A stretch of DNA of 64,000 nt from an uncultured Candidatus Saccharibacteria bacterium (GCA_964618625.1 CAZUBI010000001.1:164781-228780); one strand, 5' to 3'; positions 5,001 through 48,217 are shown, counted from the stretch's first letter. Program-made: numbers and translations. The notes: generated by a model from the letters alone, not told the origin.

Positions 5001-5020
5001 TTCTCAATTAATTTTTCTAC
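5001..5020. repeat. junction repeat (CTAC subtype)
   Basis: TTCTCAATTAATTTTTCTAC; supplies the TAG stop of 5017-5472. Confidence 0.8.
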
Positions 5021-5472
5021 AATGATATTTTTTCTAAAACTTTCTCAAACCCCGGCAGTAATTTCAACTTTTTTGCGTCCCTCAATCTAATCCATTTATA
5101 ATCTTTTGCTTCCCAATTCAGTTTCACCTTATCTGTTCTTACCTTAACCAACACTGGATGAACAATCCATGTCTTCTTATATCGGAGCGCTTCCTGATGA
5201 AAAATCTCGCCCATACAAATGCTTTTTATTTCTTTTCCGCCAATACCTAGCTCTTCCTTTAATTCCTCTTTTACTTTTTGCTTAAGAGTTTTTTTATCAT
5301 CTAAAAATCCAGAAATGCCATTCCAATAACTCGGATAAAAAGCCAAATTTTCGCTTCGTTGAACAACTAATACTTTTCCCTTGTAATTCAAAACACAATT
5401 TATTACTGGCACCCAATGCACTTCAGTATAATCAATTTGCCCTGGTTTTGGTTTAAATTTAATCTTTTTCAT
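5017..5472 (-). CDS. NUDIX hydrolase
   Basis: 151 aa; Nudix box GISGFLDDKKTLKQKVKEELKEELGI (G-x5-E-x7-REUxEExGU pattern); identical protein to 9372-9827. Confidence 0.85.
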   Translation of the reverse strand: MKKIKFKPKPGQIDYTEVHWVPVINCVLNYKGKVLVVQRSENLAFYPSYWNGISGFLDDKKTLKQKVKEELKEELGIGGKEIKSICMGEIFHQEALRYKKTWIVHPVLVKVRTDKVKLNWEAKDYKWIRLRDAKKLKLLPGFEKVLEKISL

Positions 5473-5506
5473 ATTATTAACACAATAAAACTATAATAAA
5501 TTTTAT

Positions 5507-5530
5507 TTCTCAATTAATTTTTGACGTTTT
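5507..5530. repeat. junction repeat
   Basis: TTCTCAATTAATTTTTGACGTTTT. Confidence 0.8.
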
Positions 5531-9346: not shown

Positions 9347-9356
9347 ATTTTAAAAT

Positions 9357-9376
9357 TCTCAATTAATTTTTCTACA
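9357..9376. repeat. junction repeat (CTAC subtype)
   Basis: TTCTCAATTAATTTTTCTAC; identical to 5001-5020. Confidence 0.8.
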
Positions 9377-9827
9377 ATGATATTTTTTCTAAAACTTTTT
9401 CAAACCCAGGCAGTAATTTCAACTTTTTTGCGTCTCTCAATCTAATCCATTTATAATCTTTTGCTTCCCAATTCAGTTTCACCTTATCTGTTCTTACCTT
9501 AACCAACACTGGATGAACAATCCATGTCTTCTTATATCGGAGCGCTTCCTGATGAAAAATCTCGCCCATACAAATGCTTTTTATTTCTTTTCCGCCAATA
9601 CCTAGCTCTTCCTTTAATTCCTCTTTTACTTTTTGCTTAAGAGTTTTTTTATCATCTAAAAATCCAGAAATGCCATTCCAATAACTCGGATAAAAAGCCA
9701 AATTTTCGCTTCGTTGAACAACTAATACTTTTCCCTTGTAATTCAAAACACAATTTATTACTGGCACCCAATGCACTTCAGTATAATCAATTTGCCCTGG
9801 TTTTGGTTTAAATTTAATCTTTTTCAT
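9372..9827 (-). CDS. NUDIX hydrolase (duplicate copy)
   Basis: 151 aa, amino-acid identical to 5017-5472; the ~505 bp duplicated segment is bounded by junction repeats. Confidence 0.85.
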   Translation of the reverse strand: MKKIKFKPKPGQIDYTEVHWVPVINCVLNYKGKVLVVQRSENLAFYPSYWNGISGFLDDKKTLKQKVKEELKEELGIGGKEIKSICMGEIFHQEALRYKKTWIVHPVLVKVRTDKVKLNWEAKDYKWIRLRDAKKLKLLPGFEKVLEKISL

Positions 9828-9865
9828 ATTATTAACACAATAAAACTATAATAGATTTTATTTTT

Positions 9866-9913
9866 GAACTTGTCCTGAGCTTACCGAAGGATTAATTTTT
9901 CGACTTTTTGGTA
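9866..9913. repeat. junction repeat, long variant
   Basis: GAACTTGTCCTGAGCTTACCGAAGGATTAATTTTTCGACTTTTTGGT. Confidence 0.8.
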
Positions 9914-9920
9914 ATTTACT

Positions 9921-14270: not shown

Positions 14271-16112
14271 TTATTTATTCTCATCAATTTGTGGTATAAG
14301 AAGTTGCGGTCGTTCTTTTATTTCTTGTTGAATAAATTTATCTAAGCTATCCTTTATTAAAATGAGTTGGGCGCGTTGTTTTTCTGTCAATTTAAATTCC
14401 ACATCTTTTAAATCTCCATCCTTAAATAAAATACCAAGCGCTTGTATTTCCCGAGGCTTACTAGGATTATTTGATGGTAAATTAAACTCGGTCCGAATAT
14501 TTTCTATAAGATCTCCGAAGTCATCTATTTCTTTCTTCAAAACCGTTTCTAAATTTTTACCAAATACTAACAACCTATTGTTAATTACTATCTCTGCATT
14601 TTTAACCTTCCTAATATCATCCATGGAAATATCGAAAGCGGTTGAATCTTTATTTTGAGCACTAGATTGATTAAGCACTTTAATAATTCTTTCGTTTATG
14701 CCATTTTCGCTGTTTGCCTCATCTCTATCAATCACTATAAGACAAGGGATTCCGAAAGCAGTAAGAAAAGTATAAATGGATGGAATATTATTTTTTCCAT
14801 CCGCTATTACCAACGCAAATTGATTTTTATCAATATTTGAAAAAGAATGAAATACCTCTGCGTCAGAGGGCCCTTCTACAATAACCGCTCTAGGAGCGAA
14901 AAGAGCTTCCCTCAAGCCGTTTGCAACTGTTTCAATAAGACTGTAATGAATATGTTGATCACTAATATTCTCTTTCTGTTGTCCCAAAGAAATTGTATGC
15001 TTCCTAAGTAGGGTACTATCCACATGTCTAACACTTATATTTTTATTTTCTTCCCATAAGACAACTATGTCTTCAAAGCTCCCGCAATCAATAAAATCTT
15101 CCGAATGAGTAGTATAAATTATTTGCCCTTCGGTATCCTCAGTTTTAATAGCTTGTTTCAAAACAGTAAACAAAGTTTTTCTTGCTTGTGGATGAAGGTA
15201 GCTTTCTGGCTCTTCTACTAAAAGCACAGCCCGATTATTTCTACTGTGTCTTTTCAAATAAGTTCGATAAATAGCTATAATTGCTAGTCTTTGAACACCT
15301 TCTCCTAATGTTTCCAACGGAACTTTGTTGCCATGTCTTTTAACCGAAAGCTTAAACTGACGATAATACCGCCATGGTTCATAATCAAGAAACTCCAGAT
15401 CTGTTCCACTAAGATTTAGAGGCTTAATCTGGCCCCAAAAAGTTTTTATATCTTTCTCAATATTCTTAAATTCCTGAGGGGCTCTTAATACCTTGACTGC
15501 ATCCGATATTTTCTTTTCAAATTCTTCTACTTTTTTCCCTTCATCTTCTTCGCTAAATATTCTTTCAACCTTCTGCAACATTCTCCCCAAAACACCCCAC
15601 TTGTTTGATGGTTGTTCGCCCTGAAGTTTTATCAGAGGAATCGTAATAACAACTGGTAAATTATTCTTGATATCCTGGCTTATTCTTATTTCGTTCTCCC
15701 ATTTATTTTTGGCTATTTCCCAATCACATTTATTAAAATCGTTTATCGTGTTGAGGAGAAAATAGTCAACACCAACAGAAGATTCACCATATCCAGTTTT
15801 TAAATGGTAGGCTTCAATAAGCAAACCGATAACTTCTTTATTTTCCCCGTAATAGGAAATTTCAATTGGGCTATTAAATTCCGCCGCTAGAATAATCTTT
15901 CTAGAAAGTTTATTGTTATAAAAATCATTTTCATTAAATTGGCTAGATGGCCATTTATCACCAAACAAAATATCTAGTGCCTTCAAAATGGTACTTTTGC
16001 CAACATTATTTGGACCAATCAAAGCAGTAAGACCAGAATTAGAAAATTCTATTATGACTGGTTCATCACCAAAACAGCGATAATTTTTTATTAGAAGCCT
16101 TTTTATAAACAT
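14271..16112 (-). CDS. OLD-family ATP-dependent endonuclease (AAA ATPase + Toprim)
   Basis: 613 aa; N-terminal Walker A GPNNVGKST in the LLIKNYRCF..LTALIGPNNVGKSTILKAL context typical of OLD/AAA_15-21; C-terminal Toprim block AVIVEGPSDAEVF. Confidence 0.8.
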   Translation of the reverse strand: MFIKRLLIKNYRCFGDEPVIIEFSNSGLTALIGPNNVGKSTILKALDILFGDKWPSSQFNENDFYNNKLSRKIILAAEFNSPIEISYYGENKEVIGLLIEAYHLKTGYGESSVGVDYFLLNTINDFNKCDWEIAKNKWENEIRISQDIKNNLPVVITIPLIKLQGEQPSNKWGVLGRMLQKVERIFSEEDEGKKVEEFEKKISDAVKVLRAPQEFKNIEKDIKTFWGQIKPLNLSGTDLEFLDYEPWRYYRQFKLSVKRHGNKVPLETLGEGVQRLAIIAIYRTYLKRHSRNNRAVLLVEEPESYLHPQARKTLFTVLKQAIKTEDTEGQIIYTTHSEDFIDCGSFEDIVVLWEENKNISVRHVDSTLLRKHTISLGQQKENISDQHIHYSLIETVANGLREALFAPRAVIVEGPSDAEVFHSFSNIDKNQFALVIADGKNNIPSIYTFLTAFGIPCLIVIDRDEANSENGINERIIKVLNQSSAQNKDSTAFDISMDDIRKVKNAEIVINNRLLVFGKNLETVLKKEIDDFGDLIENIRTEFNLPSNNPSKPREIQALGILFKDGDLKDVEFKLTEKQRAQLILIKDSLDKFIQQEIKERPQLLIPQIDENK

Positions 16113-16166
16113 AAAGATTTTAGTTCTTCAATTTTTCCCAATATTTCTTCCTATTTTTTATTATTT

Positions 16167-16238
16167 TTTATTTTCGACCTTTTTTATTTTTCAACTTGTC
16201 CTGAGCCTGTCGAAGGATTAATTTTTGACCTTTTGGTT
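16167..16238. repeat. junction repeat (partial copy plus long variant)
   Basis: TTATTTTCGACCTTTTTT ... TCAACTTGTCCTGAGCCTGTCGAAGGATTAATTTTTGACCTTTTGGTT. Confidence 0.8.
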
Positions 16239-16269
16239 ATTACGTTCAAAAATCAGACCTCATAATAAA

Positions 16270-17883
16270 TTAACTTTCGGACTCAGTGCCCATAGTCATA
16301 AAAGATACATTGTATCTAAATGCTCCATTCAATCTTTTTTGTGCATTTCGTAAATTTATTTTGCTAAAAAATGGAATATCAATTAAATTTCCATGCTTAC
16401 TGACAATCGCAAAAACAATTGTATATTCTGATGACTCTGGTCTTGTAATGGGCACTAATGATCTATGCGAAGAAGGTAAGATATCTCGCACTTTTTTTCT
16501 AAACTCTACATCAGACAAAAACAATTCTCCCGATACAAGACCTTGCGAAAATAGATGACTTAATACTGATGATGCGCCATATCGTTTGACATGAATAATC
16601 TTTTTATCACTGGTTAAAAGATCACAAAATTCAATCTTGCTATGGGCACCACCGTGAGAAACAAGTTTGCTATCCATATTACACACTCCTGAAAGCTCCA
16701 CGGATACTCTCTTATTATACTCGTCTTCCTTCTCTCCTTTTTGAGATTCTGGCAAACTAACAACTGGTGTAATCGTTCGGATACCCTCAAAATGATTATT
16801 AATTTCGTTAGCGAAATTAGTCTCTACTTCATACCATCTCCCATTGCTCAAAATATATGTTTTATCATTCTTTGTTAACTCTCCATATAAACAATTATAT
16901 GCTTTCCAGTGATCAATTAACTCCTCATTTTCTGCACCAATGCAATCAATAATTTCCGATTTAAATATTCCCAATGATAAATTATCACGAGCATTTGGAT
17001 CTAATGCCATAATAAAATCTTGTAAATAAATATCGTCACCTAGCGAATTTTTATTGCTTTCCATGCGAAATTCTAAAACTTTTTCCCATGGAATAATACT
17101 TGGAATTGCCATCCAAATTTTTTCTATATCTTCTATGCCTGAATTCTTAACTTTTTCTATCAGCTCATTATTTAATTCCTCAATAATCTTCGGGGATTTA
17201 ATTTCTGCAATATTATCTATCCAACTAAAATTGTTTTTATAATCACTACTATTATATTTTTCATAACATAATTTAAGAAAATTCTTGATATTTTTTAATT
17301 TTATTTTTATAGAAAGTGACAAAGCATCTTTTCCTGTAACTGTTTGTCCAAACTCTTCAAATTTCGATTTACCAGTCATTCCTTGTAGTAAATCTTGCTC
17401 AATATCAATTCCAAAATCTGCAACTGACCCACTTCTGGTCATTTGTTCAGTCACAAGCTTTGGAATAACTGTCATGTTCTTCCTATCAATATTTCTAATA
17501 TTCTCATGGTCAATTATATTAACTAAAACTTTGAGCCCAAACCGTTCTTCCCATACACCAGGATTCAAAAGCGTTCTACCATAACCAAATGTTACAGCAA
17601 ACAATCTACCTTCCACTTGAACAAGAAGGACTGCTTTTGCGCTGGCACTAAATATCTTAAGTTTATTATTGCCGTTTAGTTTTATATAATTATCAAAATC
17701 ACTCCCAAAAAACTTTTTAAGCCAAGTCGGTGAAAATATGTATGACTCCCCATAATAAATGTTCCCTACCTCATCTATTTGTTCGGTACTCAAATCATCA
17801 ACATTTTTAAAAATATCTACATCATTTGTATATTCATCTTTGATGAGATAAATCGTTAATTTGTTGCAATATTCTCTTGGCAT
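16270..17883 (-). CDS. hypothetical 537-aa protein immediately upstream of the OLD nuclease
   Basis: Long uninterrupted ORF; no motif I can assign; N-terminus MPREYCNKLTIYLIKDEY. Confidence 0.7.
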   Translation of the reverse strand: MPREYCNKLTIYLIKDEYTNDVDIFKNVDDLSTEQIDEVGNIYYGESYIFSPTWLKKFFGSDFDNYIKLNGNNKLKIFSASAKAVLLVQVEGRLFAVTFGYGRTLLNPGVWEERFGLKVLVNIIDHENIRNIDRKNMTVIPKLVTEQMTRSGSVADFGIDIEQDLLQGMTGKSKFEEFGQTVTGKDALSLSIKIKLKNIKNFLKLCYEKYNSSDYKNNFSWIDNIAEIKSPKIIEELNNELIEKVKNSGIEDIEKIWMAIPSIIPWEKVLEFRMESNKNSLGDDIYLQDFIMALDPNARDNLSLGIFKSEIIDCIGAENEELIDHWKAYNCLYGELTKNDKTYILSNGRWYEVETNFANEINNHFEGIRTITPVVSLPESQKGEKEDEYNKRVSVELSGVCNMDSKLVSHGGAHSKIEFCDLLTSDKKIIHVKRYGASSVLSHLFSQGLVSGELFLSDVEFRKKVRDILPSSHRSLVPITRPESSEYTIVFAIVSKHGNLIDIPFFSKINLRNAQKRLNGAFRYNVSFMTMGTESES

Positions 17884-17886
17884 ACT

Positions 17887-17914
17887 TTTTCAATTAATTT
17901 TTGACCTTTTGGTT
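17887..17914. repeat. junction repeat
   Basis: TTTTCAATTAATTTTTGACCTTTTGGTT, followed by GGGC (GTTGGGC). Confidence 0.8.
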
Positions 17915-18697
17915 GGGCAATTTTGAAGGTTGAATCTCTAAACGGTTTATTAAAAAATTACCAGATTCGAATTGTTCTTTTTGATTTTGATTTAAAGAAT
18001 TTTCTAAATATCCCAAAAGGTTATCCAAAATCTGTTTGCTATCTCCAACTAGTTGGTGATAGCTGTCAGAATTTCTAAGATCATTAAAATCCCATAAGGC
18101 TCTAAGCCCATTTTTAAAATTAGCCTTAAGAACAGTAATTATTTCTTCTATATGATTTTTTGCTTCTCCGATGTTTTCCGCAATTAAATATCTGATGGTT
18201 CTAAGGTAATAAAAAATTATTTGATTTTCAGGATCTAATAAGGTTTTTTGGAAAATACCCATCATTTGAATACTATTTATTGTTTCATCAAAATTATGGA
18301 AGTCTTTTATAAGTAAGTAAGCCTCTAAAAGTTCTAAGGTGGTATTAGAATCTGGTTTAATATATGAGGCTTCTTTTAACCTATTTATGGCGCTAATATA
18401 GTTTCTCGTTTTAATATGGCTCCTTCCATCCTGTTCTAATCTTTCAAATCTATTCTCTATTAGTTGCTTAAAAACAAGCCAAATAGAAAATATCGCGAAA
18501 ACTAAAATGCCTATTTGGGTTAAAAAATTCAAAAACCCAAATAACAAATTCAAGTCTTCTGCCATATCTAATCTCCGAATCATAGAAATTCCAAATATTA
18601 CCAAAATTAAAGTTCCTACCACGACCGTAGTCCAAAATCTTATATTAAAGGATGGAAACTTAAATATTTTTTCCCAAAATGTTTTTTTGTTATTCAT
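17894..18697 (-). CDS. membrane protein with cytoplasmic helical domain
   Basis: 267 aa; 2-3 N-terminal TM helices; C-terminus NQKVKN* is read from the junction repeat. Confidence 0.55.
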   Translation of the reverse strand: MNNKKTFWEKIFKFPSFNIRFWTTVVVGTLILVIFGISMIRRLDMAEDLNLLFGFLNFLTQIGILVFAIFSIWLVFKQLIENRFERLEQDGRSHIKTRNYISAINRLKEASYIKPDSNTTLELLEAYLLIKDFHNFDETINSIQMMGIFQKTLLDPENQIIFYYLRTIRYLIAENIGEAKNHIEEIITVLKANFKNGLRALWDFNDLRNSDSYHQLVGDSKQILDNLLGYLENSLNQNQKEQFESGNFLINRLEIQPSKLPNQKVKN

Positions 18698-18748: not shown

Positions 18749-19039
18749 CTAAATTATTTTCTTTTTAAATTCTCTCATTTTTTTTCTTTCTGCATACTCC
18801 TTGAATGCTACCTGTTGTCCTTTGTCTTTTTCGTTTGTTTCCTTGGTCTCAACTTCGCCAATAATCTCTTCTTTACCTTTTTTTGCAATCCAATCAGGAA
18901 CATATCCCTTTATCTTTTTCGGCTTGTCATAGCCTGGAAGATCGGCTTTTACTTTATATCCTTGACCTTCATACCATTTAACACTTCTTAAAACTGCTTC
19001 ATCGTGTTGTTTTTGACCAATTTTGGTTCTTTTTTTCAT
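18749..19039 (-). CDS. small basic hypothetical protein
   Basis: 96 aa, Lys-rich; 2 bp downstream of the AIPR-like gene. Confidence 0.45.
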   Translation of the reverse strand: MKKRTKIGQKQHDEAVLRSVKWYEGQGYKVKADLPGYDKPKKIKGYVPDWIAKKGKEEIIGEVETKETNEKDKGQQVAFKEYAERKKMREFKKKII

Positions 19040-19041
19040 AA

Positions 19042-20670
19042 TTATTTTTCAATTAATTTTTCTACTACTTTCCAAGTTGCTTCATTTTTAAAAATATTAT
19101 TATAACTATATTCTTTGCCTTCCTTTTTTCTTATTATCTTAGCCGCTTTTTTGCAAAAATTAACAGCCTTTTTAAAACTTTGCACTTCTTTTTTATCGTA
19201 GTTATATAAAAAAGTCATAATATGAAAATTAGCATGATCTAAAAATGCTCTTTTGTTCTTATTATTGACGCCTTTTAATATCTTCTTCTCTCTTTTTATT
19301 TCTTCTTGTACAAAGATACAATAATCACAAATCTTTGTTATTTCATCTATTTTTAATTCTTCCTCGTTAAAAATCTCTTTGTATATTGATTTATCCCCTT
19401 TTATTATGTCAAATAGATCCTTTTTAGAAGATTTAGCTTTAGCTGGTTTCATATATTTACAAGAATAAATCCACTGCCCTAAATCAGTAATCAATATTTT
19501 GTCCTTAATTCCTGGCTTCTTTTTCCTTTGATATGAATAACCTTCTAGATTCAATATTTCTTCTAGCGTTTTTTGAATGAAATCATTTGTCCTAAGATCC
19601 CACTTATCTATTTTTCTTTGAGTATTAGTAGATTGGCAAACCGAATTTATCTCATTTTCATCCTCTGCCTCAAAAAGTCTAGTCAAAATCATAATTTTTT
19701 TACAGTCGCCTGCTAAAATTTCCTTATTTTGATACATATTATAAAGAGTACTTAATGATTGACATCCGTTTATAATTTGAGGATTGATAACATTAAAAAC
19801 ATATTTATCACTTATTTGTTTCAAATTCTTGCAGCTGACAGTAATACCATTATGAAAAAGATAAAATTTATTTTTTCGTTCTAAAATTGTATTTTTGAAA
19901 CTAAATTTTAGGCTTTTATCATTTTGATTAACTCTAATATTATCTTCAAAAATATTATATTTTTCATCATCTGCTTTTTCAAACATATCTAATAGTTTAA
20001 TCAATAAAACTTTACCAATAACAATACGATTTTTTTTATCATAAAAAGAACTATTATCTTGAAATTCTATCCTATCTAAAAAGTTAATCTTTTTCGAATA
20101 ATTAATATCTACTTTGACCAAATCTCTTAAATTAAGTAATTTCAATTCTACTCCTGTGTAATTATTGAGATGTGATTCTAGATTTTTTTTTAATTTATTC
20201 TCCGCATTCTTTTTGTCTGAATATCTTATTATGTTTAAATATATTTTATAATTTCCTTTTAAAAATCTTTTCCTTGCTTCCTTAATCTTCTTTGCCGCCA
20301 AAGGATTTAAATTATGCAAAGAAGTATTTGGATTGAAAAAATTCCTTTTTAATTCTTCTAAAAAACCATTAAGAATACTCTGACGATCAAATCCCTCGCT
20401 TTTAACATCTAAAATATTAATCTGCTTTTTTGCCTTGTTTACAACTATCGCATCAACCCCTCCATCCTTTTTTCCATCCGTAATCAATTCTTTATTATAT
20501 ATTTCATCATTATTAAAGCCAAAAAGTATTTTTATAATAGTTATGATCGCAGCATAAGCGTTTTCGCTCGAGCCCTTCATAGAATAATGTTCTCGATTGT
20601 GACTGAAAATCTTTTTAGCTAATTTAAAATCTTGATTTATTCTCCTTTCTATATATTCTTTTAAAAGCAT
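19042..20670 (-). CDS. AIPR-family (abortive infection phage resistance) protein
   Basis: 542 aa; N-terminal ITDGKKDGGVDAIVV block resembles the AIPR DG..DGGIDA signature; C-terminus EKLIEK* overlaps a junction-repeat copy. Confidence 0.6.
   Translation of the reverse strand: MLLKEYIERRINQDFKLAKKIFSHNREHYSMKGSSENAYAAIITIIKILFGFNNDEIYNKELITDGKKDGGVDAIVVNKAKKQINILDVKSEGFDRQSILNGFLEELKRNFFNPNTSLHNLNPLAAKKIKEARKRFLKGNYKIYLNIIRYSDKKNAENKLKKNLESHLNNYTGVELKLLNLRDLVKVDINYSKKINFLDRIEFQDNSSFYDKKNRIVIGKVLLIKLLDMFEKADDEKYNIFEDNIRVNQNDKSLKFSFKNTILERKNKFYLFHNGITVSCKNLKQISDKYVFNVINPQIINGCQSLSTLYNMYQNKEILAGDCKKIMILTRLFEAEDENEINSVCQSTNTQRKIDKWDLRTNDFIQKTLEEILNLEGYSYQRKKKPGIKDKILITDLGQWIYSCKYMKPAKAKSSKKDLFDIIKGDKSIYKEIFNEEELKIDEITKICDYCIFVQEEIKREKKILKGVNNKNKRAFLDHANFHIMTFLYNYDKKEVQSFKKAVNFCKKAAKIIRKKEGKEYSYNNIFKNEATWKVVEKLIEK
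19046..19065. repeat. junction repeat (CTAC subtype; inside the AIPR-like ORF 3' end)
   Basis: TTTTCAATTAATTTTTCTAC. Confidence 0.75.
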
Positions 20671-20721
20671 GTGTGATGAAATATTATATTTATCTATAGT
20701 GTTTTACTATATTTTATCAAT

Positions 20722-21492
20722 TTATTTCTCTAAAATCCGAAATTTCCCTGATTTTACTAATTTGATACTGTTATAATTTTTTGGATTCTCAAATTCAAAC
20801 TGCCAAATTGAATAGAGATCCTCACCGTGTGCTTTATCAAAAAATAAAGTAATTACTTTTTTTCTTATCTGCTCTTGCCATTGCCTAAAAGGATAGTAAA
20901 GCTGACGAATAATTACATTTGCTGCACTAAAGTTCTTTGCTTCAATTAATACAACCTGCTTCTTACCTTCATACCCAGCATCAACTTCAGTTTGTACACT
21001 TGAAACTTTAATTTTTTGTTTGCCAACTCTAAAGTCAAAGCTAGGTGTATATTTTCTACCTCGTATTGTAAGAACAAGCGAAGGATCATTCATAAAAGTA
21101 CGAATCAAACTTGAGGCATAAGCATAATCAAGATGCTGCATTTCTGAATTACCGATTCTTGCAGTATCTAATTGAAAATCTAATTTTGAGGAATAAATTG
21201 ACACTTCTTTTTTAATTTCTGGAATATCAACATAACCTTCTCCTTTAATAATATTATAATATCCATTTTTTACAGGAAGTAAAAATAAATTATGCTTTTG
21301 AAAAATGTCTGGTCTATCCTTTCGTCTGTCCTGCTTGCACAAAATACGAACCTCTTTTTTACCTGTTTCTTTAAACCTTTGACAAGCCTGCTTTATCTGT
21401 TTTGCAGAAAGTAAAAACGGTGATTTATCAAAATCATGATCTAAGATTTTATAATCATCAAATATCTTTTTCCAAGATTTACTATTTGCCAT
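20722..21492 (-). CDS. type II restriction endonuclease (putative)
   Basis: 256 aa; immediately downstream of the methyltransferase (15 bp gap); D..EGKKQVVLIEAK PD-(D/E)xK-like block. Confidence 0.55.
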   Translation of the reverse strand: MANSKSWKKIFDDYKILDHDFDKSPFLLSAKQIKQACQRFKETGKKEVRILCKQDRRKDRPDIFQKHNLFLLPVKNGYYNIIKGEGYVDIPEIKKEVSIYSSKLDFQLDTARIGNSEMQHLDYAYASSLIRTFMNDPSLVLTIRGRKYTPSFDFRVGKQKIKVSSVQTEVDAGYEGKKQVVLIEAKNFSAANVIIRQLYYPFRQWQEQIRKKVITLFFDKAHGEDLYSIWQFEFENPKNYNSIKLVKSGKFRILEK

Positions 21493-21507
21493 AATATCAA
21501 AAACAAT

Positions 21508-22464
21508 TTATTTTTTAAGACTATGATTTAATTTTTTAAAACGCTTTATTGATAAATCTAAATATTTTTTTTCTGTATCAATACCTACAAATTTTCTATT
21601 GTTAAAACATGCAGCTAAACCTGTCGTCGAACTACCTGTAAAAGGATCTAAAATAATATTGCCTTTATTTGTGCTTGCTAATACTATTCTTTTAAGTAAT
21701 TCAAGCGGCTTTTGGGTTGGATGTTTTCCAAATACTTTTTCTTCCTTTTTAGGAGTTGTTATAGCCCATACAGAACGCATTTGTTTCCCTTTCTTATGCA
21801 TTGGCTCTATAAACTCATCATTCTGACAACGAATCTTATAATTATTATCCCAATCTCGCATTAGTTTATAATTAAAAGTGTGTTTTACTTTTTTATATTT
21901 TCGCGCCCATAAAATTGTTTCATGGCTAGCTGTGAAATAACGACAACTTAAATTGGGTGAAGCATTTGGCTTAAACCATGAAATATCATTTAGTATATGA
22001 AAGCCGGCAACTTGTAAAGCAAACCCACATTGATAAATAGAATGATAAGTTCCGCTAATCCAAATTGTTCCGTTTGGTTTTAATACACGCCTGCATGCTT
22101 TAATCCACTCCAAATAAAATTCAAAATCCTTTTTTAATCCATTGCTTTTATCCCATTTACCTTTATTTACACTTACACGTTTCCCAGCATGAACCGTAAA
22201 TCCTCCGTTAGAAAGCAAATAAGGAGGGTCGGCAAATATCATATCAATTGAATTTTCTGGCAATTGTTCTAGTATTTTTAGACAATCAGATCTATATAAC
22301 ACAAAATCGCCTTTGGAAAAATAAGGCTTTTGCTTGATAGAAAAAAGTATTTTCTTATTTATACTCATAAAGTTGTTTTCTATCTCCGGAACTAATATTT
22401 TTATCTTTTCGCATCTATAATTAAGATCTAATTGTATTAAATTTTGTTTGTTACGGTGGGGCAT
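21508..22464 (-). CDS. DNA methyltransferase, beta-class amino-MTase (N6-adenine or N4-cytosine)
   Basis: 318 aa; motif IV DPPY (IFADPPYLL) precedes motif I FTGSSTTG near the C-terminus, which is the beta-class order. Confidence 0.85.
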   Translation of the reverse strand: MPHRNKQNLIQLDLNYRCEKIKILVPEIENNFMSINKKILFSIKQKPYFSKGDFVLYRSDCLKILEQLPENSIDMIFADPPYLLSNGGFTVHAGKRVSVNKGKWDKSNGLKKDFEFYLEWIKACRRVLKPNGTIWISGTYHSIYQCGFALQVAGFHILNDISWFKPNASPNLSCRYFTASHETILWARKYKKVKHTFNYKLMRDWDNNYKIRCQNDEFIEPMHKKGKQMRSVWAITTPKKEEKVFGKHPTQKPLELLKRIVLASTNKGNIILDPFTGSSTTGLAACFNNRKFVGIDTEKKYLDLSIKRFKKLNHSLKK

Positions 22465-22505
22465 AGTTTTAAATTGTTATATTGTTAAATTATTGATTGC
22501 TATGT

Positions 22506-22694
22506 TTATTTTTTTGGCTTCCAATCACTAATTGTAATTGTTTTCTTTTTTTCGTTTATTTTAAGTTCAACTTTCTGTCTTTCTCTCCAGCGCCATTTTC
22601 GAATAATATCTATAGGCAAAGTAACAGCATAGCTTTTTTTGCCTACTTTTGTAATTTTTCTAATATTTTTTTCTTTAATTTTTCTCCTTGGCAT
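22506..22694 (-). CDS. AbrB/SpoVT/MazE-family small DNA-binding protein (controller-like)
   Basis: 62 aa; KVGKKSYAVTLPIDIIRKW..ELKINEKKKTITI swapped-hairpin pattern; three ATTACGTAAT palindromes in its own leader. Confidence 0.65.
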   Translation of the reverse strand: MPRRKIKEKNIRKITKVGKKSYAVTLPIDIIRKWRWRERQKVELKINEKKKTITISDWKPKK

Positions 22695-22703
22695 TTTGAT
22701 TGT

Positions 22704-22745
22704 TTACGTAATATATTACGTAATTTATTACGTAATCCTATTATA
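22704..22745 (-). promoter_or_regulatory. promoter -10 (TATAAT) plus three tandem ATTACGTAAT palindromic operator boxes, 12-bp period
   Basis: Minus-strand reading: GGTATAATAGG ATTACGTAAT AA ATTACGTAAT AT ATTACGTAA ACAATCAAA ATG. Confidence 0.6.
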
Positions 22746-22814
22746 CCATTTTTTGTTTCAACCAACTATTATATATAGTACCCCTGTTATAAGATATTTT
22801 CAAACCCCAAAAAA

Positions 22815-22895
22815 TAACAAAAAAAGCCCTTAATTAGGCTTAAGATTTTGAAATGGTTCAGGAGGAGTAAGTAATTTATTACTTATTCCTCCTGA
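22815..22895 (-). terminator. conserved 3' element T1 (large GGAGG-containing hairpin, then AAGCC..GGGCTT hairpin plus U-tract)
   Basis: AAAAAAGCCCTTAATTAGGCTTAAGATTTTGAAATGGTTCAGGAGGAGTAAGTAATTTATTACTTATTCCTCC; similar copies at 23945-24015 and 27052-27145. Confidence 0.6.
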
Positions 22896-22901
22896 TATAC
22901 T

Positions 22902-23801
22902 TCAAATAACATAATATGTACTACGACAATGATAGTCATAGCACTTTTTCATTACCGCTTTAATAGCAGAATGAAAACATGACAATATTCCCGGTAATTC
23001 ATTCGGTTGCCCAGACCATATTTCTTTTTGCTCTATCCAGCATCTATTTCTCTTTTGAACTATAGAACATTGAATTAGATAAATTTTCTCTCCGTGATAA
23101 CCCTGACTACCTCTAGCAAGTACCGCAACTTGTGGAATCGAGAAATAGGCATGAATGCCATTAGACAAACTGCCACTTTTCGGTACCCAATATGGACGAA
23201 AAGCTTGTCCTCTTCTCCCACAAATAATTGTGGCACTCCCTCCGCTTGCCGTACTACCTCCTTCTTCAACCAATTCCATGCGAAGTTGCATATTGATTGA
23301 ATTAGGAATTAAAAACTTTGGTTTTTCCACTGCCTCTTTTTCCATCATCTTTTTATTCCTGTACCAATCTGCATATTCTCTTATAACGGTTGGTACATCT
23401 TGAGTCTTTAATTTCATCTCCTTTAAGGAATACCATGTTGTATAACGATCTCTACGATTATATCCTTTTTCATAAATCCATTGACTTGACCCAATAAGAA
23501 ATCTAAATTTCTCTTTAATCCCCCCTCTATCTTGATTTGCAACTTCAATAGTTCGAATAAAAAATAGTATATCATGGTAAAAATCCTTATCCCATCCCGA
23601 TTTATCCGGATCTTCTGGTTTTTCTTGTTCAAATCTTCCCTCTATTTCTGCGAGTTCAAGTGAATCAACTTTTTTAAGATTTATAACAATTCCTCCTCTA
23701 ACAATACGAGAATTGAATCCCTTATTTGTAAGAGATTCTTCCAAATCTTGATGTTCACCATAATGAAATCCGCTAATTTTGATTTCTTTTATTTCTCTCA
23801 T
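22902..23801 (-). CDS. hypothetical protein (module a cargo)
   Basis: ORF-track frame 22902-23867; likely start at MREIKEIK (ATG 23801), which is preceded by AAGGAG SD; the upstream codons in the track belong to the conserved leader. Confidence 0.6.
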   Translation of the reverse strand: MREIKEIKISGFHYGEHQDLEESLTNKGFNSRIVRGGIVINLKKVDSLELAEIEGRFEQEKPEDPDKSGWDKDFYHDILFFIRTIEVANQDRGGIKEKFRFLIGSSQWIYEKGYNRRDRYTTWYSLKEMKLKTQDVPTVIREYADWYRNKKMMEKEAVEKPKFLIPNSINMQLRMELVEEGGSTASGGSATIICGRRGQAFRPYWVPKSGSLSNGIHAYFSIPQVAVLARGSQGYHGEKIYLIQCSIVQKRNRCWIEQKEIWSGQPNELPGILSCFHSAIKAVMKKCYDYHCRSTYYVI

Positions 23802-23930
23802 TTCTTTCTCCTTTGTTCCCTTGCCTGTCATTACCAGATCAGGACTTGTGGAAACTAAAATTATCAAAGAACAGGCTAGTATCTAGCTTTATGCTAACAT
23901 ATTGGTGCTTAATCGTCAAGTATATAAATA
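23802..23930 (-). promoter_or_regulatory. conserved promoter plus 5' leader (module a)
   Basis: Leader CCTGATCTGGTAATGACAGGCAAGGGAACAAAGGAG shared with modules b and c; upstream TGTTCTTTGATAATTTTA block and TTGACG -35-like element. Confidence 0.5.
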
Positions 23931-23944
23931 ATGCCCCCGGCAAT

Positions 23945-24015
23945 AAAAAAAAGCCCTTAATTGGGCTTAAAGTTTTGGAAGGAGTAAGTATTTATTGCTT
24001 ACCCCTTCCGTTTTT
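23945..24015 (-). terminator. conserved 3' element T2
   Basis: AAAAAAAAGCCCTTAATTGGGCTTAAAGTTTTGGAAGGAGTAAGTATTTATTGCTTACCCCTTCC; hairpin plus T-run on the minus strand. Confidence 0.6.
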
Positions 24016-24023
24016 ATAATCTT

Positions 24024-24518
24024 TTATCTATATATTCCTTTCAGTGTGCAACCATAAAGATTAAACTCTATGCTTCTTATATCTCGATAAATATAAGTCG
24101 GGACTCGTACTTCTTTCTTACCAATTTTTATCCAAATACCATTATCCTTAATTTCAAAGGGAATATTCCTCTTAGTGTTTAAAAAATATAGTTCAACTAA
24201 TCTCTTCTTCTTCTTCTTTTGCTGTAGTTGATAATCCTTCATTATCTCAAAACAAATTTTCCAAGATGCCACTATTTCTTCTCCGCAGCTCTCTTCTTCA
24301 CAATTAATAGTAATCTCTTCTTCTTCTCCTGAAAAAAGAACTTCCTTTTCTAATCTCTTTTCTATCATTTTTCTTACAAAATCTTTGCTGGGAACACTTA
24401 TATCATCAACGTATTCTGCTGTCTGATCTAATGGAATACAAAACCCATTAATATACAAACCCTCTAAATTTGAAGAAATAAGCTTGACCTCTCCCCACAA
24501 TGTTTTAATTCTTGCCAT
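24024..24518 (-). CDS. hypothetical protein (module b, second gene)
   Basis: 164 aa; Glu-rich and Cys-containing; 38 bp downstream of module b gene 1. Confidence 0.55.
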   Translation of the reverse strand: MARIKTLWGEVKLISSNLEGLYINGFCIPLDQTAEYVDDISVPSKDFVRKMIEKRLEKEVLFSGEEEEITINCEEESCGEEIVASWKICFEIMKDYQLQQKKKKKRLVELYFLNTKRNIPFEIKDNGIWIKIGKKEVRVPTYIYRDIRSIEFNLYGCTLKGIYR

Positions 24519-24556
24519 TTTCTTTCCTCCTCTTTTATTTTTTTATCATTTATTCA

Positions 24557-24919
24557 TTACTTTTTTACTTTCAAAACAGAATCTAATTCATTTAATATCA
24601 AAACTTTCATTCTATTAATTGTTTCTTTAAATCCTATCTTTAGGTCCTCCTTTTTTAGAAAATACTTTTTTACGGGTGTTCTGCACTCTAATAAGCTAGC
24701 AGAAATGAGGAAATATTTTCCAAGAAGCTCTAATTCAAAAATCATTCCTGTAGCAGACAATTTAAACTCTATCTCGTATCCAGCATCTTGCGTCCCATAT
24801 ATTTCAATGGAATCTTTCAATATTCCTTCACTTCCTTCACCAAAACTCTCAATTATATAATCAATCACCCATTTTACCTTAGACGGGATATATCCAATAC
24901 CACCAATTTTCATTTTCAT
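24557..24919 (-). CDS. hypothetical protein (module b, first gene)
   Basis: ORF-track frame 24557-24949; likely start MKMKIGG (ATG 24919), which is preceded by GGAGG SD. Confidence 0.55.
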   Translation of the reverse strand: MKMKIGGIGYIPSKVKWVIDYIIESFGEGSEGILKDSIEIYGTQDAGYEIEFKLSATGMIFELELLGKYFLISASLLECRTPVKKYFLKKEDLKIGFKETINRMKVLILNELDSVLKVKK

Positions 24920-25050
24920 CTCTTTCCTCCATATTACCTTGCCTGTCATAAGTGCATCAGGGCTTATCGGTTTTTTTCAAAAAACTATACTATTATCTTG
25001 TATAATAGTATATTAACAGTAGACTGTCAAGTATATAAAATCACTGGCAA
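24920..25050 (-). promoter_or_regulatory. conserved promoter plus 5' leader (module b); upstream terminator hairpin
   Basis: Minus-strand reading: TTGACA-gtctactgttaatatac-TATTAT, then leader ..CCCTGATGCACTTATGACAGGCAAGGTAATATGGAGGAAAGAG ATG; ACTGGCAAATTGCCAGT hairpin just upstream. Confidence 0.6.
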
Positions 25051-25113
25051 ATTGCCAGTTTAAGAGTTTAAAGGTTTAAAGATTAAGAGATCTTTCGTTA
25101 TTGCTCAGGATGA

Positions 25114-26127
25114 CTATGAGATTGCCAGAAAAATAGATCTAAATATTTTATCAACTTCTTCTTTATAGAGATAACCCTCCTTAGCAAGAGTACTTCTTAC
25201 GGGACTGATCTCCTTATCGACAAAGGTCTGATCTCCTATTTTGTAAGTCTCAGTTTTTGTCTTAAATTTTGTCAAAGAATCACAGGGAGTACTTGCTAAT
25301 GGAAAACTATTAACTACACGCAATAAAGTGCCTGACACAATAAAGCGTCCTACTCTTAGCATATCAAAAACTTTATTTCTATCTTTACTTTCTTTGATAT
25401 AAGAAACAACAGAACTCTTGTTCTTGCCTTCAAGAAATACAACATCAAATCCTTGATATTTCCCCTTGCGAATTTTAACGTCTTTGGGGAATTTATTCTT
25501 CACTTCTCCCATTGCCTTTTCCAACTCCTTAATCTGTTCTTTAGTTATATAATCCTTCATCACACCACTTTTAAAAAGTTCCCTCAGAGTAGTTTTATCA
25601 CTCATTCCTGGTATGCTCATTCCTGGAACAGAAGCGTCTAAAAAGCCCTGCGTTGGCACTAAACGACGGCTTTCCAGAATTTGTTTGGCTGTTTTCTCAT
25701 TAGCGAGTTCTGTGATAATAATAAAACCATGATAATCAAATTTTTCTGCCACAGGAGCAAGTAAATCATCTTGTTTCAAGCTTTCTATTGCCTCGCTGCT
25801 TTGCTCTTTCAACTTTTGCACTTTTTGGATGAGATCCGTCTGCCCAAATGCTTGAGCATACGATTCCAGCATTTGCTCACCTTCTTGTTGAGCTCTTTCC
25901 CATATCTTTGGACCGTGTGGACGTTCTGAACCAATTATAATCGTTTGGCTAGTTTCACTTTCTGCAAAAACTCTTGGATTGATAAAATTAAGGTCAGCAT
26001 TACGCCGAGGGTCAATATGACCGATTTTTACCTTAAATCTTGTTTCATCTGCCTGACGTAAGATTTCCTCCCATTGTTTGGTAAGAAGCCAACTTTTAGA
26101 CAATATTTTAGTTATTTTTACCCCCAT
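25114..26127 (-). CDS. hypothetical protein
   Basis: 337 aa ORF; no recognisable motif. Confidence 0.6.
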   Translation of the reverse strand: MGVKITKILSKSWLLTKQWEEILRQADETRFKVKIGHIDPRRNADLNFINPRVFAESETSQTIIIGSERPHGPKIWERAQQEGEQMLESYAQAFGQTDLIQKVQKLKEQSSEAIESLKQDDLLAPVAEKFDYHGFIIITELANEKTAKQILESRRLVPTQGFLDASVPGMSIPGMSDKTTLRELFKSGVMKDYITKEQIKELEKAMGEVKNKFPKDVKIRKGKYQGFDVVFLEGKNKSSVVSYIKESKDRNKVFDMLRVGRFIVSGTLLRVVNSFPLASTPCDSLTKFKTKTETYKIGDQTFVDKEISPVRSTLAKEGYLYKEEVDKIFRSIFLAIS

Positions 26128-26192
26128 TTTTATAATATTAATAGGATGAGAATAAATTGTTAATTTTTAAACAATCCCATTGTGGATAACTC

Positions 26193-26806: not shown

Positions 26807-27051
26807 ATACTAAAAACATATCTTTTAATTTTCCCCATCAGTATGGTTCGACTTCACTCACCACAAGCTTTGTTTTTATTATGTAGTTATATTATATCAT
26901 AATCATGGTATATTCTTACCATAAATCAGGTTTTTATTTTGTTTACTCTTCTTTTAATAATTGCGCAAGAATCGCGCAAGAATCGCGCAAACAAAACCCA
27001 TTGTTTTCTCTTTATATTTTACCCTTATTAAGAGGTGTTTTCAAACCTCAA

Positions 27052-27145
27052 AAAACAAAAAAAGCCCTTAATTAGGCTTAAAATTTTGAAATGTTTGGGA
27101 AGGAGTAAAATATTATGATTTTCATAATACTTTACTCCTTCTATT
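27052..27145 (-). terminator. conserved 3' element T3
   Basis: AAAAAAAGCCCTTAATTAGGCTTAAAATTTTGAAATGTTTGGGAAGGAGTAAAATATTATGATTTTCATAATACTTTACTCCTTC. Confidence 0.6.
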
Positions 27146-30343: not shown

Positions 30344-30414
30344 AATTAACTCTTTTAATTACTCCATTTCCATCTGAGCAAAAGGACAACGCAAATAAGG
30401 AAAATTATATTTTT

Positions 30415-30488
30415 TCAGAATTTTCCTTGTTTTATATTGTCTAAAAGATCTGCTAAAAGAGTGTTTTTGGTAATCTTTACCATTATTC
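30415..30488. repeat. ~73-bp direct repeat, copy 1 (flanks methyltransferase)
   Basis: CAGAATTTTCCTTGTTTTATATTGTCTAAAAGATCTGCTAAAAGAGTGTTTTTGGTAATCTTTACCATTATT; second copy at 31222-31296 with 3-4 mismatches. Confidence 0.8.
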
Positions 30489-30494
30489 CAGTCC

Positions 30495-31184
30495 TTATTT
30501 TCTAAAAATGTAAATCTGAATTTTCTCGATTACGGTTTTTTCCTCTAGGCCTTTGCCTTCCAATACTTTATGAATTCTGTTTACTAATATTTGTCTTTCT
30601 TCGTCATCTTTTGGAATTAATATATCTGACCACCAATCCAACATAGTATTATCAAGTTCTGTAATATCATTAAAAACCATATCTATTTGGCCAGTTTTAT
30701 ATTGGAGTAACTTATGACCATTTTGTTGCATATAGTTTTTTATGGTTGAAGCGGATTTTTTAATTCGTTCACCATGATTCTCATTCGGATCAAAAACCCT
30801 AAACAAATCATTTGTCACTGATCTTTCTGTTGGATCTATGAATATAAGCAAACCATTATCTTTAAGAACGCGCATAGCTTCGTTTAGCACATCTGTTTGT
30901 TTTTCATGGTCAATTTCGTGAAAACTAGATGAAAAAACGACATCAAAGAACTTATCATTAAATTTCAAATCGCTGGCATCCATTAATAAAAATTCAGTAT
31001 TTGGTGCAGAATTTTCTTTTATGTTCATATCAATAAACATTTGCAATAAATCAATGCTCTTAAGCGATTTTGCGTATTTTTGTATTATTTGCGTATAGCT
31101 ACCGTCACCACAACCAATTTCCAAAACATCTTTGTCTTTAGCTTGTTTGATTACATCCTCGACAATGTGCATATCTCTTTTCAT
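30495..31184 (-). CDS. class I SAM-dependent methyltransferase
   Basis: 229 aa; VLEIGCGDGSYT motif I; acidic motif II. Confidence 0.8.
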   Translation of the reverse strand: MKRDMHIVEDVIKQAKDKDVLEIGCGDGSYTQIIQKYAKSLKSIDLLQMFIDMNIKENSAPNTEFLLMDASDLKFNDKFFDVVFSSSFHEIDHEKQTDVLNEAMRVLKDNGLLIFIDPTERSVTNDLFRVFDPNENHGERIKKSASTIKNYMQQNGHKLLQYKTGQIDMVFNDITELDNTMLDWWSDILIPKDDEERQILVNRIHKVLEGKGLEEKTVIEKIQIYIFRK

Positions 31185-31221
31185 TTTATTATTTATTTAT
31201 TTTTTATATTTTACTAATTTT

Positions 31222-31296
31222 TCCAGAATTTTCCTTGTTTTAGTATTGTTTAAAAAATCTGCTAAAAGAGTGTTTTTGGTAATCTTTACCATTATT
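31222..31296. repeat. ~73-bp direct repeat, copy 2
   Basis: CCAGAATTTTCCTTGTTTTAGTATTGTTTAAAAAATCTGCTAAAAGAGTGTTTTTGGTAATCTTTACCATTATT. Confidence 0.8.
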
Positions 31297-47800: not shown

Positions 47801-48217
47801 CAAAGAAAAGGCCATATTGCTATTTTCTTTTACCTCCCAATCTTTCTCCTTTAAATATTCATCTACTAAGCTTATTGCTTCTTCAGAAATGATACGGCTT
47901 TCCCTTAATTTTTTTCGCTGTTCACGATATAAGATATAGGCTTTTGATGTCTCCACTAAATTCTCTAAAATTAGAACCTCTTCAACAATATCCTGAATCT
48001 GCTCTACGGTAGGAATTTCATCTTTTTTAAATCTTCTGTTTAAAATTTTTATCACGCGAGCGCATAATTGCCGCGATAAAACTTTGCCACCTTCATCAGT
48101 GGCTGTTAAAGCTTTATAAATAACTTCTTCAATCTTCTTTTTATCAAAAAGAACAATATCCCCTGTTCTTTTTTTTACTTGCTTTATATGATTATGAAAT
48201 TTTCTTTTTGGGGACAT
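44882..48217 (-). CDS. nrdD: anaerobic ribonucleoside-triphosphate reductase (class III) containing an intein
   Basis: 1111 aa; ATP-cone N-terminus, glycyl-radical motif RVVGYLRP, C-terminal Zn ribbon CPIHGY..CPKC; ~408-aa insertion carrying intein and LAGLIDADG motifs. Confidence 0.85.
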   Translation of the reverse strand: MSPKRKFHNHIKQVKKRTGDIVLFDKKKIEEVIYKALTATDEGGKVLSRQLCARVIKILNRRFKKDEIPTVEQIQDIVEEVLILENLVETSKAYILYREQRKKLRESRIISEEAISLVDEYLKEKDWEVKENSNMAFSLQGLNHYVAAYVAKKYWLRKIYPPEVREATESGDFHIHNLDILATYCCGWDLYDLLLKGFGGVFGKIQSKPAKHFRSALGQVVNFFYTLQGEGAGAQAFSNFDTLLAPFIRYDNLTYNEVKQSLQEFLFNCNIPTRVGFQTPFENLTLDLKVPSHFKELPVIIGGEHQKETYKEFQEEMDMLNQAFCEVYVDGDASGRVFTFPIPTYNITKDFDWNNPVYDGIWKMTAKYGIPYFSNFINSDMSPEDSRSMCCRLRLDNRELYKRGGGLFGAAPLTGSIGVATINMPRLAYLSKTKKEFFQKLAHIMNLAKISLEIKRKVLEDWTDKGLYPYAKYYLNGVKKMRSCYWGNHFSTIGLIGMNEALLNFLGINLGNKKGVKFALEVLDFMRDRLVEYQEETGNLYNLEATPAEGTSYRLALKDKKKYPDIITAGGKEPYYTNSTQLPVNYTDDLFEALKLQDSLQTKYTGGCIEKGNKVLTNKGLIKIEEIVENFEKLKPIKALSYNLKKGVSEWDAIVDVFKINVKKKNKIRIKGEKGMDITTSDWHPFFVLEKIKPDSCCPICQEKVSNIKGFAVHLKHHAQCRLKYSKMSKYRVIEKRADELKKSDYILQNSFNLYLEKSSRLDNNLMWLIGFFIGDGSISQFFDNRGGNQIEKFVVRFFSEHRVALSKIKNILNKYFNCHVNVIQNDKRSKLLRCVSTSKKAVWQFFFKYGFSFGEKTYIIRIPEIVKANIRKENFYSLLSGLMDSDGHIDKRDGFFEYYTVSEGLADDILEICSIAGIMVGKTRKKNKRKNEVDIWRIRIPQYEMIKIKDQLKNTVNKERINNKFSNRKKRFLPVIRVKKISKVDVKDNQFYDLTTQKNHNYLAGKNTLVFIHNTVFHSFLGEAVSDSESVKSLIKIVFEKFRLPYFTLTPTFSVCPIHGYIAGEHFICPKCTIEQPCEVYSRVVGYLRPVQQWHKGKQEEFKERSTFKI
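45173..46396 (-). mobile_element. intein with LAGLIDADG homing endonuclease inside nrdD
   Basis: Begins at Cys 608 (TGG|CIEKGNKV), ends VFIHN|T; LIGFFIGDGSIS and LSGLMDSDGHI LAGLIDADG blocks; coordinates computed from residue positions. Confidence 0.7.

Follow-up and report, generated by a model that had tools for sequence, protein, structure and literature searches.

The window analysed here, a stretch of 64,000 nucleotides (nt) from an uncultured Candidatus Saccharibacteria bacterium (GCA_964618625.1 CAZUBI010000001.1:164781-228780), carries on its minus strand a type II restriction-modification (R-M) gene pair headed by a gene for a protein of 62 amino acids (aa) with an AbrB/SpoVT fold. 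We propose, with a probability of about 0.6, that this protein is a stand-alone autorepressor acting on three copies of the palindrome ATTACGTAAT, and that the genes for the DNA methyltransferase (MTase, M) and the restriction endonuclease (REase, R) share its transcript and its feedback. The protein would then serve as a non-homologous stand-in for an Xre-type controller (C) protein, and would belong to a family of portable modules spread across the Candidate Phyla Radiation (CPR, or Patescibacteria), the group to which the relatives of the window belong. The small gene (22506-22694), the genes for MTase (21508-22464) and REase (20722-21492), and a gene for a protein related to abortive-infection factors (19042-20670) are four consecutive open reading frames (ORFs) across 19042-22694. 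An initial annotation, made from the sequence alone, had described the four on this strand with a proposed family for each; all are found as described, and the families are matched by Pfam or PADLOC.

Profile and model agree with that annotation in assigning the small protein to the AbrB/SpoVT superfamily. It matches the Pfam MazE_antitoxin/AbrB-SpoVT family PF04014 at 28.8 bits (cut-off 24.7, E 1.2e-6), most of its homologues have a precomputed match to the same family, and the profile scan returned no Xre/Cro-type helix-turn-helix (HTH) family for it. The AlphaFold (AF2) model (pLDDT 82) is a monomer of beta-beta-alpha-beta-beta topology, and its best matches in the PDB all belong to the superfamily (Sso7c4, C56, AbrB-N, MazE, SpoVT, C68 and VapB1), with Foldseek probabilities of up to 0.97 and, for so small a protein, E values of 0.2 or worse. 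Sso7c4 also ranks first in a profile search of PDB sequences (E 0.14). The AbrB domain occupies residues ~12-58 and is not followed by a C-terminal extension; as modelled, the protein is a stand-alone domain, probably of the swapped-hairpin type, and by family a DNA-binding one.

Chance does not account for the small ORF: its homologues form 56 clusters at 90% identity, and a profile search with its family finds 517 clusters at 50% identity, of which 192 have E<=1e-10; the existence of homologues, which the initial annotation had left to be checked, is thereby settled. Nearly all members are 55-75 aa long and nearly all come from CPR/Patescibacteria, with P27, W36, Q40, D57 and W58 invariant in the family alignment. 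Related loci, cited below by their L numbers, were sought with an alignment of 16 closer sequences. Two of the contigs, L019 (JAFCDK010000020.1) and L020 (SUPS01000136.1), carry a 95-97% identical small gene amid CPR-type neighbours in bins labelled Pacearchaeota and Helarchaeota, and several other metagenome-assembled genomes labelled 'Bdellovibrionales' or 'Gammaproteobacteria' carry the gene in the same kind of setting; these labels are probably the result of mis-binning or mislabelling. A phage origin of the small gene was rejected: the viral contigs of IMG/VR hold no relatives (0) of the protein, and PHROGs gave no match for it, for the four inserted ORFs described below or for four more neighbouring ORFs. 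The sole PHROGs match near the locus is a DUF6119 protein, in a phrog of no known function.

Directly 5′ of the small gene lies a repeat that the initial annotation had not recorded. Three tandem 10-bp palindromes ATTACGTAAT, the third in the form ATTACGTAAa, follow one another with a 12-bp period at 22703-22736 and form a candidate operator, which begins 3 nt past a -10 box and ends 8 nt short of the ATG. Read along the minus strand, the order is TGGTATAAT-agg-ATTACGTAAT-aa-ATTACGTAAT-at-ATTACGTAAa-caatcaaa-ATG, where TGGTATAAT is an extended -10 element (22740-22748) that would constitute a proximal promoter, P2; a TGGTATAAT/TGTTATAAT element also precedes the operator in L012, L014, L019 and L067. 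From this arrangement, the transcription start is predicted to lie inside the first palindrome. Further upstream are a sigma-70-like promoter, P1 (TTGAAA-17-TACTAT, 22775-22803), and an intrinsic-terminator-like hairpin AAGCCTAATTAAGGGCTT with a T-run (22824-22841), which ends the upstream unit. The core of the palindrome, TTACGTAA, occurs five times in the window against 0.95 expected, a count that no shuffle attained. The paired operator motif is present at this single place in the 64 kb; a search of the window for a wider regulon returned no further paired operator, just lone copies of TTACGTAA at 6957 and 11321, both inside ORFs.

P1 is part of a terminator-plus-promoter module (22772-22870) that recurs at 27013-27108 and 23946-24001, with the hairpin AAGCCTAATTAAGGGCTT also at 27062-27079 and 23951-23968. 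The window contains two families of such repeated intergenic modules between cassettes, one of them consisting of the hairpin AAGCCTAATTAAGGGCTT, a T-run and a TTGAAA-N17-TAAAAT promoter; further sites are at 2406-2476, 9856-9916 and 16163-16241.

The operator is conserved with the small gene and changes with it. Homologues have two to four copies of ATTACGTAAT 5′ of the ATG despite quite different downstream genes. When direct or inverted exact repeats of at least 10 nt were sought in the 80 nt upstream, they were found for 28 of 47 family members and for 31 of 456 control ORFs from the same loci. The repeat differs between protein classes: besides ATTACGTAAT, the classes include GTTACGTAAC (four copies), CTACGTAG, CTACTGAG/CTCAGTAG, CCCTAGG, CTTAAGTAATTACTTAAG, ATTACATAAT, GATTACGTATTCGAATACGTAATC, ATCTACTGAG..CTCAGTAGAT, CCACCTGAGATATCTCAGGTGG and CGTAATTACGG (three copies). 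Because the upstream repeats co-vary with the DNA-binding protein encoded next to them, the 62-aa protein looks, on the simplest reading, like an autoregulator.

The genes that follow are closely packed. A spacer of 41 nt (22465-22505), which in related loci is a conserved 5′ untranslated region (5′UTR) preceding RadC, separates the small gene from the MTase gene, and 15 nt separate the MTase from the REase gene, all on one strand; no terminator-like site was found on the minus strand from the small gene to 16270, beyond the DUF6119 gene, the spacer included. With gaps this short and no terminator, M and R are probably on the transcript of the small gene, and hence would be under its negative feedback. 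Since the operator lies between the -10 box and the start codon, binding would repress the small gene's own promoter. AbrB-fold dimers, one per site, would occupy the three palindromes from about the predicted start to +35, where they would block initiation or promoter escape at P2 and also act as a roadblock to transcription arriving from P1. In a naive cell, a derepressed burst of M and R expression would be followed by a low, capped level.

Whether the small gene encodes the controller of this R-M system was addressed from the R-M side, with 80 metagenome loci whose REase is 79-94% identical to that of the window and a family hidden Markov model for the AbrB gene. Of the homologous loci, 75 include the sequence immediately 5′ of the REase gene, and each of the 75 has the MTase gene there. 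About 16 of the 80 loci have a gene for a 66-74 aa Xre-type HTH_3 protein (Pfam 55-63 bits) upstream of M (examples are L085 2248-2448, L098 306-506, L106 3978-4178, L114, L118, L126 and L138), and in seven of them its end lies no more than a few bases from the start of M. These are candidate classical C proteins in C-M-R order, and as such genes stand directly 5′ of M, this R-M family has a genuine controller position in that slot. Judged by gene order, that slot is held in the window by an AbrB-fold protein. The AbrB gene itself was found in a single one of the 80 loci, L067; it therefore does not belong to the conserved make-up of the R-M system and is not that system's own controller, and the possibility of a dedicated C protein of this family was rejected. 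The initial annotation, which remarked on an AbrB-fold protein in the place of a controller, was right about the slot, and the conserved link to the R-M system that it implied is not borne out.

The closest R-M relatives, L061-L066, have other upstream modules and no AbrB leader. Upstream elements differ among these loci (~40-130 nt 5′ of the MTase) and L068, L074, L076 and L080: one is AAAACGGTGGG(G), in one to three copies amid long hairpins, and a second is a promoter whose TTGACA and TATTAT enclose the palindrome CCCGACCAnnTGGTCGGG, a possible operator of some other factor.

As the initial annotation had it, the 318-aa MTase is a beta-class N6/N4 amino-methyltransferase, identified with Pfam (N6_N4_Mtase, 202 bits), PADLOC (MTase_II, 328 bits, E 1e-98) and NCBIfam, with motif IV, DPPY (residues 78-81), ahead of motif I, FxGxG (DPFTGSSTTG, at about residue 272), the order that defines the beta class. 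It belongs to a CcrM/HinfI-like branch; orthology with CcrM was rejected, the NCBIfam CcrM score being 229 bits against a cut-off of 830. The first ~32 codons (22366-22464, minus strand; MPHRNKQNLIQLDLNY...) are a RadC 5′ stub and linker: the stub (MPHRNKQ...) is fused in frame, and the conserved body begins at Met33 (MSINKKIL). Other MTase homologues (L061-L067, L020 and L012 were compared) have a different RadC stub (MRIKDIPKIERPREKLIQ) or none. The stub at the N-terminus makes the true translation start of the MTase uncertain.

The 256-aa protein, put forward in the initial annotation as a putative PD-(D/E)xK endonuclease, is very probably a restriction enzyme of that type. It consists of DUF6996 and DUF6997 by Pfam and matches PADLOC REase_II (E 4e-37), and residues E169, D171 and E184-A-K186 are invariant across sequences of 36-95% identity. 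Distant homologues of 423 aa in Firmicutes, beside Dam-type methylases, are named 'type II restriction enzyme' in NCBI/UniRef. The nuclease assignment holds on the strength of the PADLOC match, the named homologues and the invariant D..ExK motif, with moderate structural support: the structure model has a pLDDT of 62, from an alignment with just two sequence groups, and a sequence search against solved structures gave no match. In CPR the family comprises 3856 clusters, with an identity of >=80% in more than 120 cases, and our literature search found no paper that mentions DUF6996 or DUF6997. GANTC is mildly depleted in the window (observed/expected 0.75), and site avoidance of this degree does not decide the recognition sequence.

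The surroundings of the small gene point to exchange of cargo. At one syntenic locus, small proteins of 87-97% identity precede five different cargos (the window, L012, L014, L019 and L020); the window, L012 and L014 are placed there by DNA homology to a P-type ATPase gene and a 139-aa gene, and L019 and L020 only by resemblance 5′ of the small gene (to the window/L014 and to L012). Between a 161-aa gene and the small gene, the window contains 3.3 kb (22888-26179) that L012 lacks. This insertion comprises four ORFs (337, 130, 164 and 321 aa) without a match in Pfam, PADLOC, NCBIfam or PHROGs, and its edges are formed by the repeated terminator-plus-promoter module. L012 carries at 5200-5300 a second promoter and operator, in which the small gene is cut off after 21 nt (ATGCCAAGGAGAAAAATTAAA) and joined to the start of the 161-aa gene, a truncated second copy that looks like a recombination scar. 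In L067 the order is small gene (partial)-M-R-small gene, with copies on both sides of the R-M pair. Two copies in L031 (4490-6180) head RadC and HsdR, and three copies within 6 kb of L049 (364-6180) head a 591-aa protein, a MerR-like gene with DUF4325, and DpnI. Judged from these arrangements, the small gene marks cassette junctions and can recur within one island.

RadC recurs at these junctions. Past the stop codon of the small gene follow the conserved 5′UTR and the start of RadC, which is intact in L001, L020, L031 and L034, as well as in L012 after an inserted protease gene, and reduced to a stub in L002, L019 and behind the second copy in L067. In the window, the R-M pair appears to have recombined in at the RadC 5′ end. 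Homology to the R-M cassette of L067 stops just past the REase stop codon, and the abortive-infection gene is therefore probably a separate cassette. Tentatively, and with less confidence than we place in the autorepressor itself, the ~60-aa AbrB-fold family of CPR/Patescibacteria might be seen as a set of diversifying, portable promoter-operator-repressor modules at the 5′ edge of exchangeable cassettes, especially RadC-led R-M or defence cassettes. Each would be a resident expression unit that captures cargo and also a homology anchor for swapping it. Portable cassette leaders of this kind would account for the five cargos behind near-identical copies, the flanking duplicates, the remnants, the multi-copy islands and the RadC stubs. 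An integron promoter likewise expresses captured cargo; the AbrB-fold module differs in that no integrase is in evidence.

The cargo headed by the family is varied, with R-M systems of type I, type II, type IIG and helicase-linked kinds. It includes the type II R-M pair (the window and L067), RadC with HsdM (L001 and L020), HsdM (L028), HsdR (L031), an MmeI-like type IIG enzyme after RadC (L012), a 1087-aa IIG enzyme (L029), a 742-aa MTase+AAA+helicase (L014), PLD-SNF2 (L002 and L046), RadC-Dam with Dam (L034), AIPR (L023), DpnI (L049) and an EVE protein/helicase (second copy in L067). Other members precede housekeeping and further genes: IF-1, PpiC/HtrA/ClpB, EF-G/EF-Tu/S10, Dus/MnmA, RlmH, GlmS, L10/L7-L12, a P-type ATPase, DUF488 and more. 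The cargo of L020, L022, L025-L029 and L060 was read from sequence motifs. By our own tally, R-M or defence-like cargo makes up about a third of ~50 distinct contexts, and some 10 of 14 among the close relatives with the TTACGTAA operator; this lies far above the few per cent of genes in general that are defence genes, a figure used here in place of a matched background. RadC plus a methyltransferase or R-M system is the commonest direct partner, and the gap between small gene and cargo is often only -12 to +45 nt. The tie between small gene and restriction suggested in the initial annotation is accordingly looser than supposed: R-M and defence cargo is over-represented behind the gene, which is nevertheless neither exclusive to such cargo, with homologues heading EF-G/EF-Tu, IF-1, ClpB-region, RlmH and GlmS genes, nor bound to one R-M family.

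Several points weigh against the proposed autorepressor-led operon. With about two thirds of the family members heading non-defence genes, the link to restriction may be incidental to the architecture of the islands, and 79 of the 80 homologous R-M loci lack the AbrB gene. The ATG of the small gene is not preceded by a Shine-Dalgarno sequence, and a weak internal promoter may be present, either within the small gene or in the 41 nt that follow it. Moreover, the hallmark of C proteins is that R lags behind M, and simple negative feedback on a C-M-R operon is not enough to produce such a lag.

The strongest competitor, which we regard as rather unlikely, holds that the small gene encodes a resident autoregulated factor or an Sso7c4-like nucleoid-associated protein at the flank of a hot spot for defence insertions, while M and R run from signals of their own. 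It gains from the constancy of the small gene beside the P-type ATPase and 139-aa genes as the cargo varies in the window, L012, L014, L019 and L020, from the many family members that precede housekeeping genes, and from the different upstream modules used by L061-L066. The best structural match of the protein is, in addition, a Sulfolobus chromatin protein, and in L001 and L014 a -10-like element TGATAAAAT lies just 5′ of the cargo ATG. A generic chromatin protein, however, is hard to square with sequence-specific operators that co-vary with the protein, and independent expression of M and R with spacings of only 41 and 15 nt, with the lack of a terminator in the window or with the gaps of -12 to +45 nt common in the family. 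Sister operons, too, keep true C proteins in the very same slot.

The remaining two explanations concern the nature of the protein and of the repeats. That the repeats act as RNA structure in the 5′UTR or as recombination sites, not as a protein operator, is improbable. They can pair with one another (minimum free energy -8.9 kcal/mol, z = -2.0), and the promoter-operator-gene module is located where cassettes join and where duplications occur; yet 8 of 200 shuffles fold as well, the start codon is left free, the motif co-varies with the adjacent DNA-binding protein, and no recombinase is associated with the module in the loci examined. The RNA-structure version was set aside as weak on account of the z score and the free start codon. 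Less probable still, to the point of being very doubtful, is an AbrB/MazE-type antitoxin whose toxin is the downstream gene or a lost one, possibly with the REase in the toxin role. Its appeal lies in the name of the Pfam family, in two homologues that JGI names as antitoxin components, in the occurrence of AbiEii upstream in L001-L003, and in the fact that type II toxin-antitoxin operons typically begin with an autoregulatory palindromic operator ahead of their first gene. The 62-aa protein, however, is a DNA-binding domain without a toxin-binding tail and has no PADLOC match, and the next gene differs in almost every context and in no case falls into MazF, PIN or another recognised toxin family; for want of tail, toxin gene and PADLOC match, the toxin-antitoxin reading was rejected.

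The C proteins (C.PvuII, C.AhdI, C.Esp1396I, C.Csp231I and C.Kpn2I) offer the obvious comparison to an autorepressor at the head of M and R. They resemble the arrangement in the window in being encoded by a small co-directional gene heading an R-M system, with repeated or palindromic operators at its own promoter and presumed autogenous control. In a 2025 review of R-M systems, C proteins are presented as HTH proteins, without mention of a different fold (PMC12707154). The window protein has the AbrB fold instead, probably as a swapped hairpin. Its putative operator lies 3′ of the -10 box, suggesting repression only, whereas C proteins typically activate the C-R unit; the operator sequence is unrelated to known C-boxes; and the small gene also heads non-R-M cargo rather than being bound to one R-M family. 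It shares position and operator logic with the C proteins and departs from them in fold and in cognate association, and is not one of their family.

By analogy, a better fit than the activating C proteins seems to be the operon-head repressor HsdC of Mycoplasma gallisepticum, which heads an R-M operon in a reduced genome and binds direct repeats in its own promoter (PMC5282649). HsdC seems to act as a repressor of the entire operon, and its further targets include housekeeping genes such as clpB (PMC5282649). It differs in belonging to the HTH C-protein family and to a type I system, and has not been reported as a multi-copy family leading cassettes. Within the AbrB/SpoVT/MazE superfamily, the small protein is a stand-alone domain like Sso7c4, C56 and C68, the latter two being plasmid/virus proteins; it represents a CPR-restricted subfamily with 14-26% identity to the solved members, from which it differs in its basic N- and C-terminal tails, the lack of a toxin partner and the conserved short tandem palindromic operator. 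BrxR and CapW (WYL/winged-HTH proteins) show that one regulator family can stand upstream of many unrelated defence systems and repress its own operon. Their fold is unrelated; the small protein is without a ligand- or damage-sensing domain, and its family also heads housekeeping operons.

Our literature search found no paper on AbrB-type R-M controllers or on such defence regulators in CPR. What would be new is a portable and presumably autoregulated leader of cassettes, of a non-HTH fold, that takes the place of a C protein; on the other side, operons headed by a small autorepressor of the AbrB type are in principle common. If real, the use of an AbrB-fold repressor in the slot of an Xre-type C protein would be a clean case of non-homologous controller replacement within one R-M family. 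CPR bacteria have very few recognised regulators, and the readable, co-varying operators of this family constitute a testable series for protein-DNA recognition. The family would also give a handle on the expression and reshuffling of defence islands in uncultivated, reduced genomes.

Downstream, the fourth gene of the cluster (19042-20670) encodes a 542-aa AIPR/AbiU-like abortive-infection protein by Pfam (PF10592, 92.4 bits) and PADLOC (AbiU, E 1e-31). Its AIPR family, given in the initial annotation, holds, and the gene probably does not form one cassette with the R-M pair, as the R-M homology ends after the REase stop codon. On the same strand follow genes for an AHJR-like protein of 96 aa (18749-19039), a membrane-like protein of 267 aa (17894-18697), a DUF6119/TIGR04141 protein (16270-17883; TIGR04141, 'sporadically distributed protein', 468 bits) and an OLD-family ATPase-TOPRIM (14271-16112; PADLOC Old, E 5e-44). 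With the AHJR-like, DUF6119 and OLD-family genes downstream, the region is a defence island, in keeping with the defence cluster first described; DUF6119/TIGR04141 and the adjoining OLD-family gene (14271-17883) may form a two-gene defence pair. Genes for RpoC, ClpB, P-type ATPases and an intein-bearing NrdD mark the window as chromosomal. A scan with Rfam found one tRNA only.

Three further features lie elsewhere in the window. A direct duplication of 508 bp with 99% identity (5001-5508 and 9356-9863) contains two 151-aa ORFs (5017-5472 and 9372-9827). The gene for the anaerobic ribonucleotide reductase NrdD (44882-48217) is split by an intein with a LAGLIDADG homing-endonuclease domain. Finally, a direct repeat of 80 bp with 95% identity (30409-30487 and 31217-31296) flanks a 229-aa ORF (30495-31184), and strand bias and GC content shift at this repeat and ORF.

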